Below, piece by piece: positions 4,905 to 51,595 of a stretch of 64,000 nucleotides of DNA. The position numbers were made by a program, and so were the translations under genes. This DNA is from a virus (taxonomy: Duplodnaviria; Heunggongvirae; Uroviricota; Caudoviricetes), in the IMG/VR virus record IMGVR_UViG_2537561978_000005; one strand, written 5' to 3'. The stretch's first letter is position 1, and every line of letters begins with the position of its first letter. The notes beneath the pieces are model-generated. The model saw nothing but the letters and a program-made list of their open reading frames with translations, was not told where the DNA came from and did no database searches.

Positions 4905-4930
4905 GGGGCTGAAATGCCCCTTTCACTTTC
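4905..4930 (+). terminator. Rho-independent terminator-like hairpin
   Basis: GGGGC-tgaaat-GCCCC followed by TTTCACTTT. Confidence 0.45.
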
Positions 4931-4992
4931 CTGTAAGTCCATAAATCACACACTTTTTACACTTCCTGCTTTCTATGTAAGGGGAGTGTATT

Positions 4993-26601: not shown

Positions 26602-26994
26602 ATGGAACAAATCAGCAGCGCAGAAATTGCGGATATCATGATCAGGGCTGACTGCTATCTGACAGTCACTGAAATTACCACTCTCGCCAAAGAAAAATAC
26701 CCTCATCTCCATGTTTCACGAGTAAGTGTAACTAACATCATTCGTCATTTTGTTCGTTCAAGCAGGGCAATCTGTGAGCTTGATGATCGTGTTTACCCAC
26801 GAAAATACTGGTTGCATGGCCTGAACGGATATCAGTTCAAGGTGCGTGGGCGAACCCCTGAATATGGCAGTTTACTGGTTAAAAACTGTAGCAGGAAATC
26901 AGTCGAACAGGCGCGAAAAGAGCAACGAGAGCTGGTGGACATGGCGAATAAGCTGTGGAATGCCGCCGTTAAAAAGCGTGGTGTTGCTTTATGA
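26602..26994 (+). CDS. Hypothetical DNA-binding protein immediately upstream of pacA (position of a late-gene activator such as Lpa)
   Basis: 130 aa, RBS GGGGGA; synteny only. Confidence 0.3.
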   Translation: MEQISSAEIADIMIRADCYLTVTEITTLAKEKYPHLHVSRVSVTNIIRHFVRSSRAICELDDRVYPRKYWLHGLNGYQFKVRGRTPEYGSLLVKNCSRKSVEQARKEQRELVDMANKLWNAAVKKRGVAL

Positions 26995-28355
26995 GTCTGG
27001 TTAATTGGGAGGAGCACCGCGCCCGCTTTATAGCGTTGCGTGAAGAAAAAGGGATCACTGTAAAGGAATACTGTGAGGAGCATGGCCTTAGCTTCAATAC
27101 AGCCAGAAAGCATCTCAATATGAAAAAAAATGAGGTGCGGTCGCAGGTAAAGACAACAAAAAAAAGCACCAAATCACCTGAAAAAAAACGGGCGGGAAGA
27201 GCAACAAAAAAGCTGGAAGAGGGTGCAGAAAAAACAAAATTTACAGAAATTGACAATTCGCAGGGCGCAGGTTCTTTCCGAAGTATGCCGAGAAAGAAAA
27301 CTTCGGATCATGAAAATAATTCAAATAATAACAATGAGATAAAAGAATCTGTCAGGAGATCATTGCGCGAAAAAATGGCGAAAATGATCCCCGAAGAAGA
27401 TAAAAACGCCCCAAAAATTGAGGGATCTTCTGCAATGATCCCTGACGGTGCTGTGCAGCGTGCCACATTGCCAACTACGAATGTGGCTCGCGATATGATG
27501 AAGAACGGCGCAGAAGAACACCTGCGGTTAGCAATTCAAATGGCGCAAGAGCGCGCACTTCAGTATCAAAGCATTGTTGATCAGGAGGCCGAACGTCTAC
27601 AGGCGGAAATAGACGCCTTGGGCGATAAAGAGCCAGAAGGAATGCACCCTGGGCAGCGCCTTCTCGGTCTAATCAGTGACGCGGCCTACTACATGAATGA
27701 TTTTATCAGTAGGTTGGCAGCTATATATCAGTCCGAACAAAAGCTGCGACAGGGGGATGAAAAGCTTCGTCAGAGCGCTCGCCAGCAAGCATTCAAAGAG
27801 GCTGAGGCCAGAGAAAAACTCGAATTAGCACGCCTACAGGCCGAACAGCGTGGCAAAGAGATTGAATATCGCATTGGCGCTGACGCACGCGCAGCCAGAG
27901 TTATCGCCGCCGCTATACGTATGCGTGAGCGCGAGGAACTGGATGATATCGGTGTTGCTGAATACATCGAGCGCCAGGGTGTCAGCGTCCCGGCTATCCT
28001 CGCGGCGCGCGCGGCGAAAGCTATCACTCTTCTCGAACCACCTGTTTCTGACGTCAATGATGTTGATGATGAACAGCTGGACAAAGAGGCAAGGGAGTTT
28101 GCAACGCTTCAGGCTAACCATCCGCAATGGCTGGCAGAGCGCCGGGCGGATGTGGCAACCATTGTTGAAGAATTGGGGTGCGGAGATTACGACCGCAATG
28201 GCGAGCGTAAAGCTGGAGAATTCGAGGCCAACGACGAAGAGCTGGATATTGACCCTTCGGCAACGGCTGAAATTTACGGTGATTATGATGCATCTGATGC
28301 AGGGTATGACGCCGGAGATGATGATATCGCGATAGAACCGCCGGAGGATGATTAA
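26991..28355 (+). CDS. pacA: Terminase small subunit (PacA-like)
   Basis: 454 aa, N-terminal HTH-like region, Lys-rich linker, acidic C-terminus; overlaps the terminase large subunit start; GATC cluster in its 5' third. Confidence 0.6.
   Translation: MSLVNWEEHRARFIALREEKGITVKEYCEEHGLSFNTARKHLNMKKNEVRSQVKTTKKSTKSPEKKRAGRATKKLEEGAEKTKFTEIDNSQGAGSFRSMPRKKTSDHENNSNNNNEIKESVRRSLREKMAKMIPEEDKNAPKIEGSSAMIPDGAVQRATLPTTNVARDMMKNGAEEHLRLAIQMAQERALQYQSIVDQEAERLQAEIDALGDKEPEGMHPGQRLLGLISDAAYYMNDFISRLAAIYQSEQKLRQGDEKLRQSARQQAFKEAEAREKLELARLQAEQRGKEIEYRIGADARAARVIAAAIRMREREELDDIGVAEYIERQGVSVPAILAARAAKAITLLEPPVSDVNDVDDEQLDKEAREFATLQANHPQWLAERRADVATIVEELGCGDYDRNGERKAGEFEANDEELDIDPSATAEIYGDYDASDAGYDAGDDDIAIEPPEDD
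27300..27585. other. Candidate pac site region: cluster of GATC-containing hexamers
   Basis: GATC at 27306, 27386, 27424, 27437 and 27579 (TGATCC/TGATCA forms), 5 in about 280 bp against about 1 expected. Confidence 0.35.
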
Positions 28356-29863
28356 TGGCTGGCGGGCGCAAGATTAAATGCGTCACCAGCGATCCACGCT
28401 GGCGCGATATGGTAATCAAATACCGCTACAACTTTACCCAGGCTGTAGTCGATATTTTTGGGATGTTCCCCTCCCACCAGCAGCAGCAGATCATTCAGTC
28501 AGTGCAGGAAACGGGGAGTAGGACGACCGTCACGTCCGGACACGGAACGGGGAAGTCGTCCCTTACCGCGATGTTGCTGTTGATTTTTATGATCCTGTTC
28601 CCCGATGCCCGTGTCATCATTGTTGCTAACAAGATAGGCCAGGTAAAAACAGGCGTATTCAAATACGTTAAACAGTATTGGGCGAATGCAGTTAAGCGTC
28701 ATGGGTGGTTGCAGACCTATTTTGTCCTCTCTGACACCATGTTTTATGAGCGCTCCCGTAAGGGGATTTGGGAAGTTCTCTGCAAAGGTTATCGACTCGG
28801 CAACGAAGAAGCGCTGGCGGGGGAACACGCGGCACATTTGCTTCTAATTCTGGATGAAGCATCTGGTATATCTGATAAGGCGATCGGCGTAATGACCGGT
28901 GCTCTTACTGAAGAAGATAACCGGATGTTGATGCTATCCCAGCCAACAAGGCCAAGTGGTTATTTCTACGATTCGCACCATTCTCGAGCAAAAACCCCAG
29001 ACAACCCGAAAGGGATCTGGACAGCAATTGTTCTTAACTCGGAAGAATCACCGTTCGTCACACCACAATTCATCAAGGAGAAGCTTCTGGAATATGGTGG
29101 GCGCGATTCTATTGAGTACATGGTCAAGGTGCTTGGTCAGTTCCCACGAGAAATTAACGGCTATTTGCTTGGTCGTGATGAATGCGATCGCTCTGCTCGC
29201 CGCAAGGTGTTGTTGGAGAAAAACTGGGGATGGGTGGCAACGGCTGACGTTGGTAATGGGCGAGATAAGTCGGTCCTCAACATCTGCAAGGTATCAGGTC
29301 ACAGGGATAAGCGGCGCGTTGTTAACTTTAAGGTAATGGAGATGCCTGGCACTATGGACCCATTGGCCTTTGCTGACTTCATATATAACGAATGTACGCC
29401 GGAAAAATACCCGAATATAACAATCGCGGTTGATGCTGATGGTTTTGGTTCTGATACGTGTGCGCAGTTGGTGCGTCGTGGTGCGAACCCGGTACGTATT
29501 CGGTGGGGAAAACCCATGTTTGCGAACAAAGACAGGGAGCGATTTGTTAATCAGCGTGCCTACGCAAATATTATGGCGCGAGATGCCATAAAGTCAGGGC
29601 GTATGCGGATAGACAGTGACCCTAAAACGGCAGAGCAAGCGTCAAAAATCCCCTTTTTACTGAATGAAGAAGGGAAAATGGCGATGATGCGCAAAGAGCA
29701 CATGCGGCAAAAGCTAAACATCAAATCGCCTGACCGATGGGATACCTACTGCTTCACTATGCTGGTGGACTATGTGCCTGCTAATGAAGATATTGGTGCC
29801 GAAATGGCAACTTTCCGAGATCAGGTTCTGGCGGATATCGAAATGCCGGATCTGGATATATAA
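28355..29863 (+). CDS. pacB: Terminase large subunit (PacB-like)
   Basis: Walker A SGHGTGKSS, Walker B LLLILDEASGI, start overlaps pacA stop (TAATG), GGAGG RBS. Confidence 0.75.
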   Translation: MAGGRKIKCVTSDPRWRDMVIKYRYNFTQAVVDIFGMFPSHQQQQIIQSVQETGSRTTVTSGHGTGKSSLTAMLLLIFMILFPDARVIIVANKIGQVKTGVFKYVKQYWANAVKRHGWLQTYFVLSDTMFYERSRKGIWEVLCKGYRLGNEEALAGEHAAHLLLILDEASGISDKAIGVMTGALTEEDNRMLMLSQPTRPSGYFYDSHHSRAKTPDNPKGIWTAIVLNSEESPFVTPQFIKEKLLEYGGRDSIEYMVKVLGQFPREINGYLLGRDECDRSARRKVLLEKNWGWVATADVGNGRDKSVLNICKVSGHRDKRRVVNFKVMEMPGTMDPLAFADFIYNECTPEKYPNITIAVDADGFGSDTCAQLVRRGANPVRIRWGKPMFANKDRERFVNQRAYANIMARDAIKSGRMRIDSDPKTAEQASKIPFLLNEEGKMAMMRKEHMRQKLNIKSPDRWDTYCFTMLVDYVPANEDIGAEMATFRDQVLADIEMPDLDI

Positions 29864-29890: not shown

Positions 29891-30928
29891 TTACCAGAGC
29901 TTCGCGGCGTACTGCGTTTGGGGGAATGTGTATCCGTAACGTTCTTCGATTGCTTTGCCGTATTTTTTACGAGCTTCATTCAGTTTTATGCCGGTCAGGT
30001 CGTCTCCAGAGGCCATCATTACGTCTAACAATTCCAGATCCATTTTATCCAGCCTTGCCATTGCTTCACGTGATGTACGTATCTTACGCTCAATGATATG
30101 GCGAATAGCCGGATCGGCATCCTCCAGCATCTTAGCGGATTTCTGCTTAAGGCTTTCATTGCGAATATCGATGTTCCTTAAGATGTACGACTTCGCAACG
30201 TAGCTTGGCTGGTGTTTTTCCAGGTCACGAACACGATATAAGTTAAAATCGCCGAGAAGGCTGCAAGGTACCGATTCGACGCCAGAATAAATTGTAATGC
30301 TCCGGCGCTCACCAACATTATTGACAACGGGGATCGTTGTCTTCGGTAGTCTTGCGAAAACCAATGCGCCATGTGCGCCAACTCTAAAGCGAGAAAGGGC
30401 ATTGCTGCCTTCGATGTTTGTTGTCAGCACAACATCTGTATATGCCTCTTTACGCGCCCGGTAGATCTCGCCTTCAGGCTCAGCTTCAAAGAAGCGCTGT
30501 TCTTCTTCAAGAGCACCTACGATTTGAGAAAAAACCCTATTTTTCAGGCTTTTCTTTATGATTTTGTCGTATTTTTTGAGCAATTGTTCACGTGTAAATG
30601 TACGTGTTGTTGTAGCGCTTTGCACAACAACATGCGTGCTTTGATTGGTGTCCTCAATGATGAATGGGATCGGAGAATATACAGACTCAACAATGTTCGA
30701 CGCTTTGCCGTCGGCATCGCGGCACATGTCAACGAAGGCTTTCCATTCAGCAAGACATTTTTCAGCTTCTTCTAATATGTTTTGGTCATGCGTTAATGCA
30801 ACATGGCGGAATTCCTCGCCAGCATAACTGGTATCATGGAAAACAGAGTTTGCGACCACCAGCTCTTTCCACCGTTCAGCGGTTTGCAGGAACCGTTTGT
30901 ACTCTTTCTCGATCGACTTCTTACTCAT
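29891..30928 (-). CDS. Hypothetical protein; candidate master repressor by position and by operator at its own start
   Basis: 345 aa; sits between pacB and lox-cre where P1 carries c1; operator-like motif 20 bp upstream of its ATG; no sequence-level match asserted. Confidence 0.5.
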   Translation of the reverse strand: MSKKSIEKEYKRFLQTAERWKELVVANSVFHDTSYAGEEFRHVALTHDQNILEEAEKCLAEWKAFVDMCRDADGKASNIVESVYSPIPFIIEDTNQSTHVVVQSATTTRTFTREQLLKKYDKIIKKSLKNRVFSQIVGALEEEQRFFEAEPEGEIYRARKEAYTDVVLTTNIEGSNALSRFRVGAHGALVFARLPKTTIPVVNNVGERRSITIYSGVESVPCSLLGDFNLYRVRDLEKHQPSYVAKSYILRNIDIRNESLKQKSAKMLEDADPAIRHIIERKIRTSREAMARLDKMDLELLDVMMASGDDLTGIKLNEARKKYGKAIEERYGYTFPQTQYAAKLW

Positions 30929-30960: not shown

Positions 30961-31137
30961 ATTACTATGACAAATTTATGTCGAATAACAGAGTGAGTAA
31001 AGGATCGAACTGTGATTTTTTGTCATCAAATTTAGAAAACCAACTGTATAAACCACGCTTCGCAAATTAAAGACCATGAAGGCAACGTGTTACTGGTCAG
31101 AATCAATCTGTGATGGATTAAAAAAAATCGCCATTTT

Positions 31138-31171
31138 ATAACTTTAAATAATTGGCATTATTTAAAGTTAG
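31138..31171. other. lox-like recombination site (13-bp inverted arms, 8-bp spacer)
   Basis: ATAACTTTAAATA-ATTGGCAT-TATTTAAAGTTAG; arms match each other 12/13 and match loxP arms (ATAACTTCGTATA) at 10/13; 150 bp upstream of the Cre homologue. Confidence 0.7.
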
Positions 31172-31322
31172 GCTATAATTATGGGTAGATGATCAGTATT
31201 GACATCACTGAAAATACGCGCCTCGAATCAAAGGCTTGAATCTTGAAAATTAACTTATAGCTACCCTGTCATTTTTATATTTTTCGCGTAGCGTTATCTG
31301 TATATAGAGGTTAAATAGTTTC

Positions 31323-32351
31323 ATGAGTGAATTAATTATCTCTGGCAGCTCCGGTGGTTTTCTGCGCAACATTGGCAAAGAGTACCAGGAGGCCGCAGAA
31401 AACTTTATGCGGTTCATGAATGACCAGGGGGCTTATGCGCCGAATACTCTGCGCGACCTCCGGTTGGTGTTTCATTCATGGGCGCGCTGGTGTCACGCTC
31501 GCCAGCTTGCCTGGTTTCCGATCTCACCAGAAATGGCCCGCGAGTATTTTCTTCAGCTGCATGATGCCGATCTGGCTTCGACCACCATTGATAAGCACTA
31601 CGCCATGCTGAATATGCTGCTTTCGCATTGTGGCCTTCCGCCACTTTCGGATGATAAAAGTGTTTCTCTGGCTATGCGGCGCATCCGGCGCGAAGCGGCA
31701 ACTGAAAAAGGCGAACGAACAGGCCAGGCTATACCGCTTCGGTGGGACGATCTGAAACTGCTCGACGTCCTGTTGTCCAGGTCAGAACGGCTGGTGGACC
31801 TGCGCAACCGGGCTTTTCTCTTTGTTGCATACAATACGCTGATGCGTATGTCGGAAATCTCGCGTATTCGTGTAGGAGATCTGGATCAAACAGGTGACAC
31901 TGTCACGCTACATATTTCACACACGAAGACAATAACGACCGCCGCCGGGCTTGATAAGGTGCTTTCCCGTCGCACTACCGCTGTGCTGAATGACTGGCTG
32001 GATGTTTCCGGGCTTCGCGAACATCCTGACGCAGTGCTGTTCCCGCCGATACACCGTAGCAATAAGGCCAGGATCACGACAACGCCCCTTACTGCACCTG
32101 CAATGGAGAAAATATTCAGCGACGCCTGGGTGTTGCTGAATAAAAGAGATGCTACGCCAAACAAAGGAAGATACCGGACGTGGACCGGGCATAGTGCACG
32201 CGTCGGGGCCGCTATTGATATGGCTGAAAAGCAGGTGTCTATGGTGGAGATCATGCAGGAAGGAACCTGGAAGAAACCGGAAACACTTATGCGGTATCTT
32301 CGCCGTGGCGGCGTGTCTGTGGGGGCTAATAGCCGCCTGATGGATTCGTAA
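31323..32351 (+). CDS. cre: Tyrosine recombinase, divergent Cre homologue
   Basis: 342 aa; alignable along its length with Cre from memory (WFP, VSLAMRRIRRE, RNRAFLFVAYNTLMRMSEISRIRVGDL, WTGHSARVGAAIDMA, C-terminal catalytic Tyr in RYLRR region); roughly 45% identity. Confidence 0.75.
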   Translation: MSELIISGSSGGFLRNIGKEYQEAAENFMRFMNDQGAYAPNTLRDLRLVFHSWARWCHARQLAWFPISPEMAREYFLQLHDADLASTTIDKHYAMLNMLLSHCGLPPLSDDKSVSLAMRRIRREAATEKGERTGQAIPLRWDDLKLLDVLLSRSERLVDLRNRAFLFVAYNTLMRMSEISRIRVGDLDQTGDTVTLHISHTKTITTAAGLDKVLSRRTTAVLNDWLDVSGLREHPDAVLFPPIHRSNKARITTTPLTAPAMEKIFSDAWVLLNKRDATPNKGRYRTWTGHSARVGAAIDMAEKQVSMVEIMQEGTWKKPETLMRYLRRGGVSVGANSRLMDS

Positions 32352-32353
32352 AT

Positions 32354-32370
32354 TAAATTTCTAACACATC
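32354..32370 (-). promoter_or_regulatory. Operator-like motif
   Basis: TTTCTAACA at 32358-32366 just after the cre stop. Confidence 0.35.
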
Positions 32371-32424
32371 TTTTTAGATTAACGCCTTTGCTGTAAAGTA
32401 CCCTCGCCTATTTAGGAGGGTGCT

Positions 32425-34194: not shown

Positions 34195-34962
34195 ATGGAA
34201 AGCACTAAAACAATTCAATACCGCTTGCGTAATGGCCTGCTGGTGGCTGTTAACGCCGACATGTCACTGCCGTTTGACACGATTGAACGCACTATCATGA
34301 CGTATCTCGGCTTTAATGAAGAGCTGAATGAAGAGCATGGCGTAGCTATATGGAGTGATGCAGACAGCGGCGTTCGTCGTTACATCACCGCCAGGGGCAA
34401 AGACTACTCTCTGGAAGAACTGTTTGCCCTTGCGCAGTCTTTCGAATGTGTAGCATTAGACCTGTTTAATGATCCTGCTATAGCGCAACGACTTATACGC
34501 GAGCTTGGGCTATCCGTTACACCAATTATATTTAAAAATGGCAGCCTGACTGGCACATGGCGCGTAGAACGCATCTCAAACTACCTTCCATATAACCGAC
34601 AGTTAAATGGAGTAATCTCCGGCGTTAACCAGCCCGTAGCGTGTGAAAATGTAAACCTAGTTGTCGCTGTTTTGGCAACCGCATGTCGTGTTATCGGTTT
34701 GGCTAAACAGGCATTTATTCATTTCCCAAATGGTGCAGAAGGTAGCGCAGAGATTATCGCGTGTGATTTCGAATTTACCTGGATGCTACGCGAATATCTG
34801 GACCAAACAGTATTCCGTGCCGAAGAACTGGATATGTATATCACGTCAACGATTCCAGACGATGTGCGAGCTGAAGCAATCGCTACAGCCAGGGCGAAAT
34901 GCCGTGCGGCGATTGCAGAACAGGCCAAAGAAGAAGTTAAGGAAGTGGCAGATGGCGACTAA
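34195..34962 (+). CDS. Hypothetical protein
   Basis: 255 aa, RBS GGAGTGA. Confidence 0.55.
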   Translation: MESTKTIQYRLRNGLLVAVNADMSLPFDTIERTIMTYLGFNEELNEEHGVAIWSDADSGVRRYITARGKDYSLEELFALAQSFECVALDLFNDPAIAQRLIRELGLSVTPIIFKNGSLTGTWRVERISNYLPYNRQLNGVISGVNQPVACENVNLVVAVLATACRVIGLAKQAFIHFPNGAEGSAEIIACDFEFTWMLREYLDQTVFRAEELDMYITSTIPDDVRAEAIATARAKCRAAIAEQAKEEVKEVADGD

Positions 34963-36046
34963 GAGCAATATTTATAAAGATCCGCGCTGGCTGTCGCTGG
35001 TGGAGAAATATAAAGACAATTGGGTACTGGCAGCAAAAGAATTGTTTGATATTGATTTAAGCCACCAGCAACAACAAATTGTTGAAGCTATACAGCCCAA
35101 TAATGCAAAAGCTACTGTCACCACTCCGTATGGGATCGGACGACCGCAAGTGCTTGCTGTTATTAGTACCCTTTATACGATTATGTATCCTGATTCCCGG
35201 ACAGTAATTGTTTATCCAAAATCAAATGTTTGCAAAAGAGGAATTGTTGCATATGTGTGGCAATGTTGGGAGGCATTGCTGAAAAAACAACCTTTTATCA
35301 TTGAGTATTTTAAGGTCGGTGATAGCGGTCTGATGTTCAATGAATTTTGGGGAATGTGCTTTTGTAACTTCCGCCTTAACTATGAAGATAGCATTGCAGG
35401 TCACTACGCCGACCATCTTTTATTCATTATTGTGGATTCCGCACATATCAGCGATCGGGCATACAGCATTGTGTGGGCAAGCATGACTAGTGGTGATTCA
35501 CGCATATTGCTCACTTCAATTCCGTCACCAGAGGAAATAGGCTTTTTTTATGATTCACATCATGGACGTGCTTTAGCTGAAGATAATCCGAGTGGTGTAT
35601 ATAAAGCCATTAAGCTGAGTGCGGAGGATTCACCATTTATTACCCAAGAATATCTTGATCATTTTGCCGAAAGGTATGGCGGGCGAAATAGTGATGACTA
35701 TCGTCGTATGATTCTTGGTGAGTTCCCTGGTATTAGGGAGGCTGTTCTTGAATCAGATATGCCGAAGACAATGCGCTTTTCGATGCCTGATGGTAGTGAA
35801 TGGACAATACCATTACGAGTGATAGCCCGGCATCATGCGCAGCACCACGCCAAAAAACATGGCGTCACGACATTAGAATGGTTGAAATCGCACACCATTC
35901 CACTCTTCACTGCAGATCACAATGCTATCGTTGAGTGGGCAAAAACAATTCCGTGGGAGAATGTCGCTGAATACGCCCACATGCTAAAACCGCCGAAAGA
36001 CAGGCAAGAAATTAGCTGGCTGACAGCAGAAAAAATCATTGAGTGA
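34952..36046 (+). CDS. Terminase-large-subunit paralogue with degenerate ATPase motifs
   Basis: Aligns with PacB N-terminal half (DPRW, HQQQQI, FYDSHH, DNP.G, SPF, EYGGR, LG.FP) but Walker A SGHGTGKS is TPYGIGRP and Walker B LDEAS is VDSAH; track start 34661 is an upstream extension, ATG 34952 follows GGAAGTGG. Confidence 0.55.
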   Translation: MATKSNIYKDPRWLSLVEKYKDNWVLAAKELFDIDLSHQQQQIVEAIQPNNAKATVTTPYGIGRPQVLAVISTLYTIMYPDSRTVIVYPKSNVCKRGIVAYVWQCWEALLKKQPFIIEYFKVGDSGLMFNEFWGMCFCNFRLNYEDSIAGHYADHLLFIIVDSAHISDRAYSIVWASMTSGDSRILLTSIPSPEEIGFFYDSHHGRALAEDNPSGVYKAIKLSAEDSPFITQEYLDHFAERYGGRNSDDYRRMILGEFPGIREAVLESDMPKTMRFSMPDGSEWTIPLRVIARHHAQHHAKKHGVTTLEWLKSHTIPLFTADHNAIVEWAKTIPWENVAEYAHMLKPPKDRQEISWLTAEKIIE

Positions 36047-37348: not shown

Positions 37349-37738
37349 TCATATAGCAGGACTATCATCAAATTCACCGCCCCTGGCGTCATTGATAATG
37401 TGGGTGATCACACCAAAAACAGCATTACTACCCGTGTAACCATCGTCATCTACTGGTAACGCCTCTTTCTTCCCGGTGCTTAAATCCTCCAGGTGCTGGC
37501 GCGGATACTTCCGGTATCTTTTTACGCGATATTCTCCCTCCATAGCGCACACAAGCAGCGAACCATCAACTGGAGTAAGCGAAGAATCAACCACCAGCAA
37601 AGCACCCTGCAATATTCCCTCACGGTGATGGCTGTCTGCCGCCCGCATGAAGTATGTCGCTGATGGATGCCTGATTAGTTGCTGATCAAGAGAAATTCGG
37701 CTTTCAACATAGTCCGCCGCAGGAGAAGGGAAGCCCAT
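37349..37738 (-). CDS. humD: UmuD'-like protein (HumD-like), pre-processed form
   Basis: MGFPSPAADYVE start corresponds to the post-cleavage N-terminus of UmuD'; LexA box 20 bp upstream. Confidence 0.7.
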   Translation of the reverse strand: MGFPSPAADYVESRISLDQQLIRHPSATYFMRAADSHHREGILQGALLVVDSSLTPVDGSLLVCAMEGEYRVKRYRKYPRQHLEDLSTGKKEALPVDDDGYTGSNAVFGVITHIINDARGGEFDDSPAI

Positions 37739-51289: not shown

Positions 51290-51595
51290 ATGCTCTATGC
51301 GGTTCCTCAGCAAGCTTCTGATTCTTTGAAGTTAATCAAGACTGTACTTCAGCTTATAGCATCTCAACAAGAAGTGTCACAGCAGTTAAAGTTACGGGTT
51401 TATGAGGTGATCAGAGAAGCCTCAAACTTAAGTGTAGATAAAGGTGATCAATTACAGATTCCTTCTCACAGAGAGTCCATCTCGCTCGCGGTAGAGATAC
51501 GCCACACTAAGGCGCTCGCCCAGGTGCTAACCAAAGTAACTAGCGAAGATATGTTAGAACCCGTAATGGCCCGGAATGTATTAGAGTACATTTAA
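51290..51595 (+). CDS. Hypothetical small protein, first gene of AT-rich operon
   Basis: 101 aa, strong RBS AAGGAGGGG; stop overlaps next start (TAATG). Confidence 0.6.
   Translation: MLYAVPQQASDSLKLIKTVLQLIASQQEVSQQLKLRVYEVIREASNLSVDKGDQLQIPSHRESISLAVEIRHTKALAQVLTKVTSEDMLEPVMARNVLEYI

Follow-up and report, generated by a model that had tools for sequence, protein, structure and literature searches.

The question raised by this locus is whether a lox-like palindrome and the recombinase gene that follows it form a new site-specific recombination pair or one that is already known. In the window, which is the whole stretch of 64,000 nucleotides that was analysed, the original prediction had placed a 34-bp lox-like site about 150 bp upstream of the gene for a Cre homologue. 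Both were found as described: the 34-mer ATAACTTTAAATA-ATTGGCAT-TATTTAAAGTTAG occupies positions 31138-31171 and the open reading frame, identified below as dre, begins 151 nt downstream of it. The site and the gene consist of the following parts.

31139..31170, no strand assigned: rox, the 32-bp target of Dre, identical at 32/32 bases to misc_recomb 4909-4940 of AY753669.1
31139-31152: left arm of rox, TAACTTTAAATAAT
31153-31156: asymmetric centre of rox, TGGC
31157-31170: right arm of rox, ATTATTTAAAGTTA
31323..32351 (stop codon counted), plus strand: dre, encoding the Cre-type tyrosine recombinase Dre of 342 aa

The 34-mer is the 32-bp rox core extended at its two ends by the native bases 31138 and 31171. 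The core is a perfect 14-nt inverted repeat, the arms of which are separated by 4 nt. It was present as a single copy in the 64-kb window, and no further rox copies were found within the window; two half-sites with 2 mismatches, at 51321 and 63429, were at chance level. When the sequence was shuffled with preservation of dinucleotides, 0/100 shuffles contained a match to the core at 3 or fewer mismatches. The palindrome is not due to chance.

In the literature, rox is described as a 14-4-14 site of 32 bp (PMC4777119, PMC12331466). The 13-8-13 architecture first assigned to the site departs from this convention, but it is defensible because mutational data suggest that the functional crossover region of rox is about as long as that of loxP (PMC4777119). 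It had also been stated that the outer ATAACTT of loxP was kept. TAACTT is common to both sites. The outermost base is asymmetric between the two 13-mers of the 34-mer (A vs C), and across related loci it is either A or C at the left end and either G or T at the right end. Since this base varies, the unit conserved throughout the family is the 32-mer. The arms of rox differ from those of loxP at 3/13 positions, with CGT replaced by TAA (also PMC7438526), and the asymmetric centre is 4 bp long, in agreement with the claim that the inner arm positions and the spacer are altered. Over the full length, 21-22 of the 34 positions are common to the window site and loxP, and 12-13 differ.

By its sequence, the protein is a Cre-type tyrosine recombinase, and it is a homologue of Cre rather than Cre itself. 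The Pfam model PF00589 matched residues 157-327 of Dre with E = 5.3e-17 and 62.6 bits, against a cutoff of 27.1. The closest match in a search of solved structures was Cre, with E = 5e-69 and residues 22-341 aligned; no solved structure of Dre was found in that search. The SAM-like N-terminal model PF02899 scored slightly under its cutoff (21.6 vs 22.3 bits), so the Cre-like N-terminal DNA-binding domain of Dre is supported by the alignment with Cre and not by Pfam. Dre and Cre were 41% identical over 322 aligned residues and 40% identical globally, somewhat below the figure of about 45% given at first.

All six catalytic residues were kept in Dre, namely R175, K202, H290, R293, W316 and Y325, which correspond in the alignment to R173, K201, H289, R292, W315 and Y324 of Cre, respectively. 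Five of the six, K202 excepted, are listed in PMC4777119. A comparison of the DNA-contacting residues with those of Cre had been proposed as a check, and it was informative: R44, P259 and K263 of Dre align with K43, R259 and G263 of Cre. The exchanges K43R, R259P and G263K in Cre mark the residues that discriminate loxP from rox (PMC7438526), and the window protein has the Dre identity at all three of them.

The region 31000-32400 of the window was compared with GenBank phage records by megablast. The only phage match was Escherichia phage D6, with 96% identity, and the D6 features under the match were annotated as 'dre: tyrosine recombinase' and 'region of crossover (rox) site for Dre recombinase'. 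The window protein and D6 Dre (AAV84949.1) were identical at 342/342 residues. The two dre genes differed at 30/1,029 nucleotides (D6 dre, L001 5093-6121), and all of these differences were synonymous. All 32/32 bases of rox were identical in D6, and both native boundary bases also matched. In the window and in D6 alike, rox sits between c1 and dre about 150 nt before the ATG, and the gene order pacA-pacB-c1-rox-dre-orf-orf-dut is common to the window and the D6 immC region. The locus is almost certainly the Dre/rox module of an E. coli phage-plasmid, a plasmid prophage of the D6-like type. Nothing was found that speaks against this identification, and there is no functional difference between the Dre/rox pairs of the window and of D6. 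Dre/rox was first described in 2004 by Sauer and McDermott, as cited in PMC3082901. The pair is already known and its finding here is a rediscovery; the novelty implied by the original prediction did not hold, since the description dates from 2004.

Because the protein and the site are identical to those studied before, the published results on Dre/rox transfer to the window. Dre efficiently recombined rox in E. coli (PMC3082901), and no cross-reactivity was observed when Cre, Dre, VCre and SCre were combined with loxP, rox, VloxP and SloxM1 (PMC3082901). Dre and Vika did not cross-react on each other's sites (PMC3553980). Cre was without activity on rox and Dre was inactive on loxP (PMC7438526), and orthogonality was also reported in B. 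subtilis (PMC12331466). Dre also recombined pox and lox8, each of which departs from rox at two positions of the half-site (PMC10250229). A recombination assay on this site versus loxP had been suggested; the result is already in print for the identical protein and site, and it was positive for rox and negative for loxP (PMC3082901, PMC7438526). The prediction of a natural pair of the Cre/lox type that has a specificity of its own was thus right, as the pair is identical to Dre/rox and its orthogonality has been published (PMC3082901, PMC7438526, PMC12331466). The predicted use as an orthogonal recombination tool was likewise borne out, as Dre/rox is already routinely combined with Cre/loxP in intersectional genetics and is in standard use in mice, zebrafish, CHO cells and bacteria.

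The neighbours of rox and dre place the pair in a prophage that is closely related to D6.

29891..30928, minus strand: c1, prophage repressor, the divergent left neighbour of rox; 99.6% nucleotide identity to D6 c1
26991-28355, plus strand: pacA, terminase/pacase; 99.0% nucleotide identity to D6 pacA
28355-29863, plus strand: pacB, terminase/pacase; 99.3% nucleotide identity to D6 pacB

For most of its length the window aligned collinearly, in reverse orientation, with the 91-kb genome of D6; identity was 92-99.6%, and a few segments were replaced. The DNA of the window is not D6 itself. Among the records, E. coli plasmids of about 87-97 kb came closest, led by NZ_CP117014.1 with 99.3-99.6% identity. 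The assignment to a plasmid prophage, also made at first, is supported by this collinearity with D6 and by the size of the nearest plasmids. D6-like plasmid prophages have been described as a group (PMC6799933).

One open reading frame of 365 aa at 34949-36046 on the plus strand was absent from D6, had no Pfam match and was annotated as 'hypothetical protein'. Over 258 aa it aligned with the N-terminal ATPase domain of PacB, of which it is a paralogue (37% identity, E = 6e-57). It had no match to the C-terminal part of PacB, and its Walker A motif looks degenerate (PYGIGRPQ vs GHGTGKSS). The product may be a catalytically dead terminase-like protein. The segment carrying this open reading frame was found in 90 PLSDB plasmids.

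By analogy with Cre/loxP, one Dre monomer would bind each inverted arm of rox, and a tetramer would synapse two rox sites. Tyr325, helped by R175, K202, H290, R293 and W316, would then cleave the DNA and exchange one strand pair and afterwards the other. Homology with Cre-loxP structures suggests that the exchange would proceed through a Holliday junction within the central region of rox. Recombination by Dre would need neither a cofactor nor an accessory protein. In the element, such a reaction would resolve dimers of the low-copy plasmid prophage, which would lead to faithful partition, and would circularise terminally redundant phage DNA after infection.

The analogy with P1 Cre/lox and the conserved pacA-pacB-c1-site-recombinase layout lead us to infer that dimer resolution and cyclisation are most likely the natural role of rox and dre. 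Both functions agree with the position of the pair, which lies next to c1 at a distance of about 4 kb from pacA. In P1, the two roles of Cre/lox reportedly go back to Austin, Ziese and Sternberg in 1981 and to later work on this phage. No demonstration of dimer resolution or cyclisation in D6-type elements was found in the later open-access papers that quote the primary descriptions.

Substitution counts against D6 set dre apart from its neighbours. For dre, pS was 0.12 and pN was 0 (30 synonymous and 0 non-synonymous differences), while pS was 0.02-0.03 for c1, pacB and pacA, with some non-synonymous changes. The other genes pooled had 182.5 synonymous to 66.5 non-synonymous differences, and given this ratio the 30:0 of dre has P ~ 9e-5. 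As judged from these counts, Dre is under unusually strong purifying selection. IMG/VR contigs were also found to encode a 100% identical Dre protein. The pS values of lpa (26602-26994) and humD (37349-37738) against D6 were similarly high; dre, together with lpa and humD, looks like a set of older mosaic segments in which the Dre protein has been held invariant.

The stretch that is more diverged from D6 extends over about 31000-32400. Its left end precedes rox by about 140 nt, and rox was rejected as the mosaic breakpoint between the window and D6. The flank of rox on the side away from dre fell into at least 5 unrelated classes (L019, L027, L032, L015, L006 and L009, compared with the window), while the flank on the dre side was conserved. 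This pattern fits a role of rox as a junction that would join different backbones, although rox is not the breakpoint between the window and D6.

Both 13-bp arm cores, which were fixed by the scan pattern used to collect the related loci, stayed the same while the identity of the adjacent Dre homologue fell from 100% to 70%. The distance from rox to the ATG was 152-153 nt in 26 related loci, again with Dre homologues down to 70%. The wild-type centre was present in 21/23 IMG/VR loci and in 5/6 sampled plasmid or phage loci. Three other centres were seen in place of TTGGCA.

440-471 of L008 (NZ_CP058619.1): rox with centre variant TTGGAG, arms unchanged
3706-3737 of L015 (IMGVR_UViG_3300009011_000012; Dre homologue 70% identical): rox with centre variant TTAGCA, found once in 23 IMG/VR loci, arms unchanged
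12405-12436 of L022: rox with centre variant TGGGGA, found once in 23 IMG/VR loci, arms unchanged

In the published orientation, TTGGAG departs from the wild type at positions 2 and 3 of the 8-bp centre, and changes of rox at positions 2 and 7 were reported to make it incompatible with wild-type rox (PMC4777119). A 100% match to this variant was found in one E. coli plasmid only (1/5,426 genomes), and it could be a sequencing error. Natural heterospecific rox alleles as a widespread feature are unsupported, given that the wild-type centre dominates in both samples. The rare variants TTGGAG, TTAGCA and TGGGGA may still be heterospecific alleles that prevent the fusion of co-resident D6-like plasmids, a weaker idea than the autoregulation discussed below. 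A further candidate was rejected: in an uncultured Clostridia MAG (L033, OZ007016.1, 6381-6412), full rox arms surround a symmetric centre (TAACTTTAAATAATTAATATTATTTAAAGTTA) and form a perfect AT-rich palindrome. This was the only match in the species-representative genomes, and no Dre homologue was found in the 8 kb of sequence covered there. It is probably a chance palindrome or a terminator in AT-rich DNA.

A second possible signal was found on top of rox.

31152..31179, plus strand: putative sigma-70 promoter of dre, with an 11/12 match to the consensus, overlapping rox
31152-31157: -35 box TTGGCA of this putative promoter, covering the centre of rox
16 nt between the two boxes: spacer of the putative promoter, over most of the right arm of rox
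31174-31179: -10 box TATAAT of this putative promoter

This was the sole sigma-70 match of at least 11/12 on both strands of the 64-kb window, where about 1.0 such match per 64 kb is expected by chance. The TATAAT of the -10 box was kept in D6 and in all related loci examined, even where the flanks differed, with the exception of L006 (TATGAT). The TGGGGA centre of L022 weakens the -35 box to 3/6 matches. To the left of rox, the region between c1 and rox also contains short direct repeats (AGGATCGAACTGTGAT and AGAATCAATCTGTGAT, 98 nt apart) as well as inverted repeats, at 31001-31016 and 31099-31114 and at 31014-31027 and 31116-31129. These repeats could be operator-like elements for the control of c1 or dre, or could be due to chance.

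The palindrome might be read as mainly transcriptional, either as the operator and promoter of dre or as a hairpin that ends transcription from the c1 side, with recombination as an incidental property. As this reading would expect, the -35 box of the window's only sigma-70 match of this quality falls in the centre of the palindrome, and the -10 box of that match is kept across loci with diverged flanks. However, exactly this protein recombines exactly this 32-mer in several organisms (PMC3082901, PMC4777119, PMC12331466). Moreover, the arms, as far as their scan-fixed cores allow the comparison, are invariant, and the centre that holds the -35 box is the naturally variable part. Because the arms are invariant and the centre varies, a site bound by the recombinase fits better than a promoter, and the transcriptional reading is very improbable.

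With rox taken as the recombination site of Dre, a regulatory role would be a function added to recombination and not an alternative to it; we regard such an addition as possible but less likely than not. Since rox overlaps the -35 box and the spacer of the likely promoter of dre, dre may be autoregulated. In this model, which we put forward with some reserve from a consensus match and its conservation, rox would also be the operator of the dre promoter, and Dre bound at rox would repress its own synthesis. If this were true, autorepression would keep the recombinase low in the lysogen, as with Tn3 resolvase at res. No description of dre autoregulation through rox was found in the open-access papers that followed the 2004 original.

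The locus was found in 124/5,426 complete E. coli genomes (~2%) and in 159 PLSDB plasmids from E. coli, Salmonella and Shigella. As the exact protein and site are common in plasmid prophages of these three, commensal and clinical strains can carry active Dre together with rox. Three of the 126 places of the locus in E. coli were chromosomal, which might suggest an integrase with its attachment site for chromosomal insertion in place of plasmid resolution. However, 123/126 places were on plasmids, and the site is a single simple palindrome like that of Cre/loxP, unlike attP/attB with arm-type sites. In addition, both plasmid copies examined from a diverged 79% class have fragments of IS1, IS26 or IS30 on their flanks, a sign of IS-mediated capture. 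The integrase reading is extremely unlikely.

In this diverged class (L006, NZ_CP058720.1; L009, NZ_CP110979.1, a 188-kb plasmid), the cassette of rox and dre lies outside a D6-like context, between IS1 and IS26 or IS30 fragments. The protein is 89-90% identical and the rox core is identical, and the same 79% class also occurs on chromosomes (H88 and H89). The cassette seems to have been captured by IS-mediated events in this class, and it may serve elsewhere as a multimer-resolution cassette.

The plasmid records annotate dre only as 'tyrosine-type recombinase/integrase' and leave the rox site unannotated, and this generic annotation, together with the distance of the protein from Cre and of the site from loxP given above, is what an undescribed Cre/lox-like pair with a new specificity would show, but the protein is D6 Dre, the site is D6 rox and the 34-mer had already been printed as (A)TAACTTTAAATAAT TGGC ATTATTTAAAGTTA(G) (PMC3082901), so that such a pair has almost no chance of being correct.

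Dre/rox of a D6-like plasmid prophage is thus the reading that we retain. The finding adds natural-history context to a widely used tool and has small weight as a discovery. What novelty is left is limited to a possible autoregulatory overlap and to the pattern of conservation at the population level. The promoter overlap, the rare centre variants, the rigid geometry of the cassette and the strong selection on Dre may be undescribed. A possible autoregulatory loop is suggested by the geometry of the cassette together with the promoter that overlaps rox.

Among the known systems, Tn3/gamma-delta is relevant to that loop. There, res overlaps the resolvase promoter, and occupancy of the site also represses transcription. 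The resolvase is, however, an unrelated serine recombinase with a three-subsite res, and it is likened to rox for the idea of autoregulation only. The Cre-type systems VCre/VloxP, SCre/SloxP, Vika/vox, Nigri/nox, Panto/pox and YR1-YR12 are closer to Dre/rox, as each has one tyrosine recombinase and a palindromic site of about 34 bp less than 1 kb from the gene (PMC10250229). They consist of different proteins and different sites. Cre/loxP of P1 belongs to the same family and fold class as Dre/rox; both domains are homologous, the catalytic residues are identical, the outer arm bases TAACTT are common to both, and both sites have a palindrome with an asymmetric centre. The genomic role is also alike, beside c1 and pac in a plasmid prophage. 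In P1, roughly 0.4 kb separates loxP from the cre gene downstream of it, compared with 0.15 kb between rox and dre. The asymmetric centre is 8 bp in loxP and 4 bp in rox, and the two systems are further separated by 41% protein identity, by K43R, R259P and G263K, and by the lack of cross-recombination (PMC7438526, PMC3082901). Dre/rox of D6 (Sauer and McDermott 2004; GenBank AY753669, MF356679) has the same protein, site, position and gene order as the window. The differences from D6 are a locus identity of 96%, 30 synonymous changes in dre, and a mosaic host element with several replaced segments.
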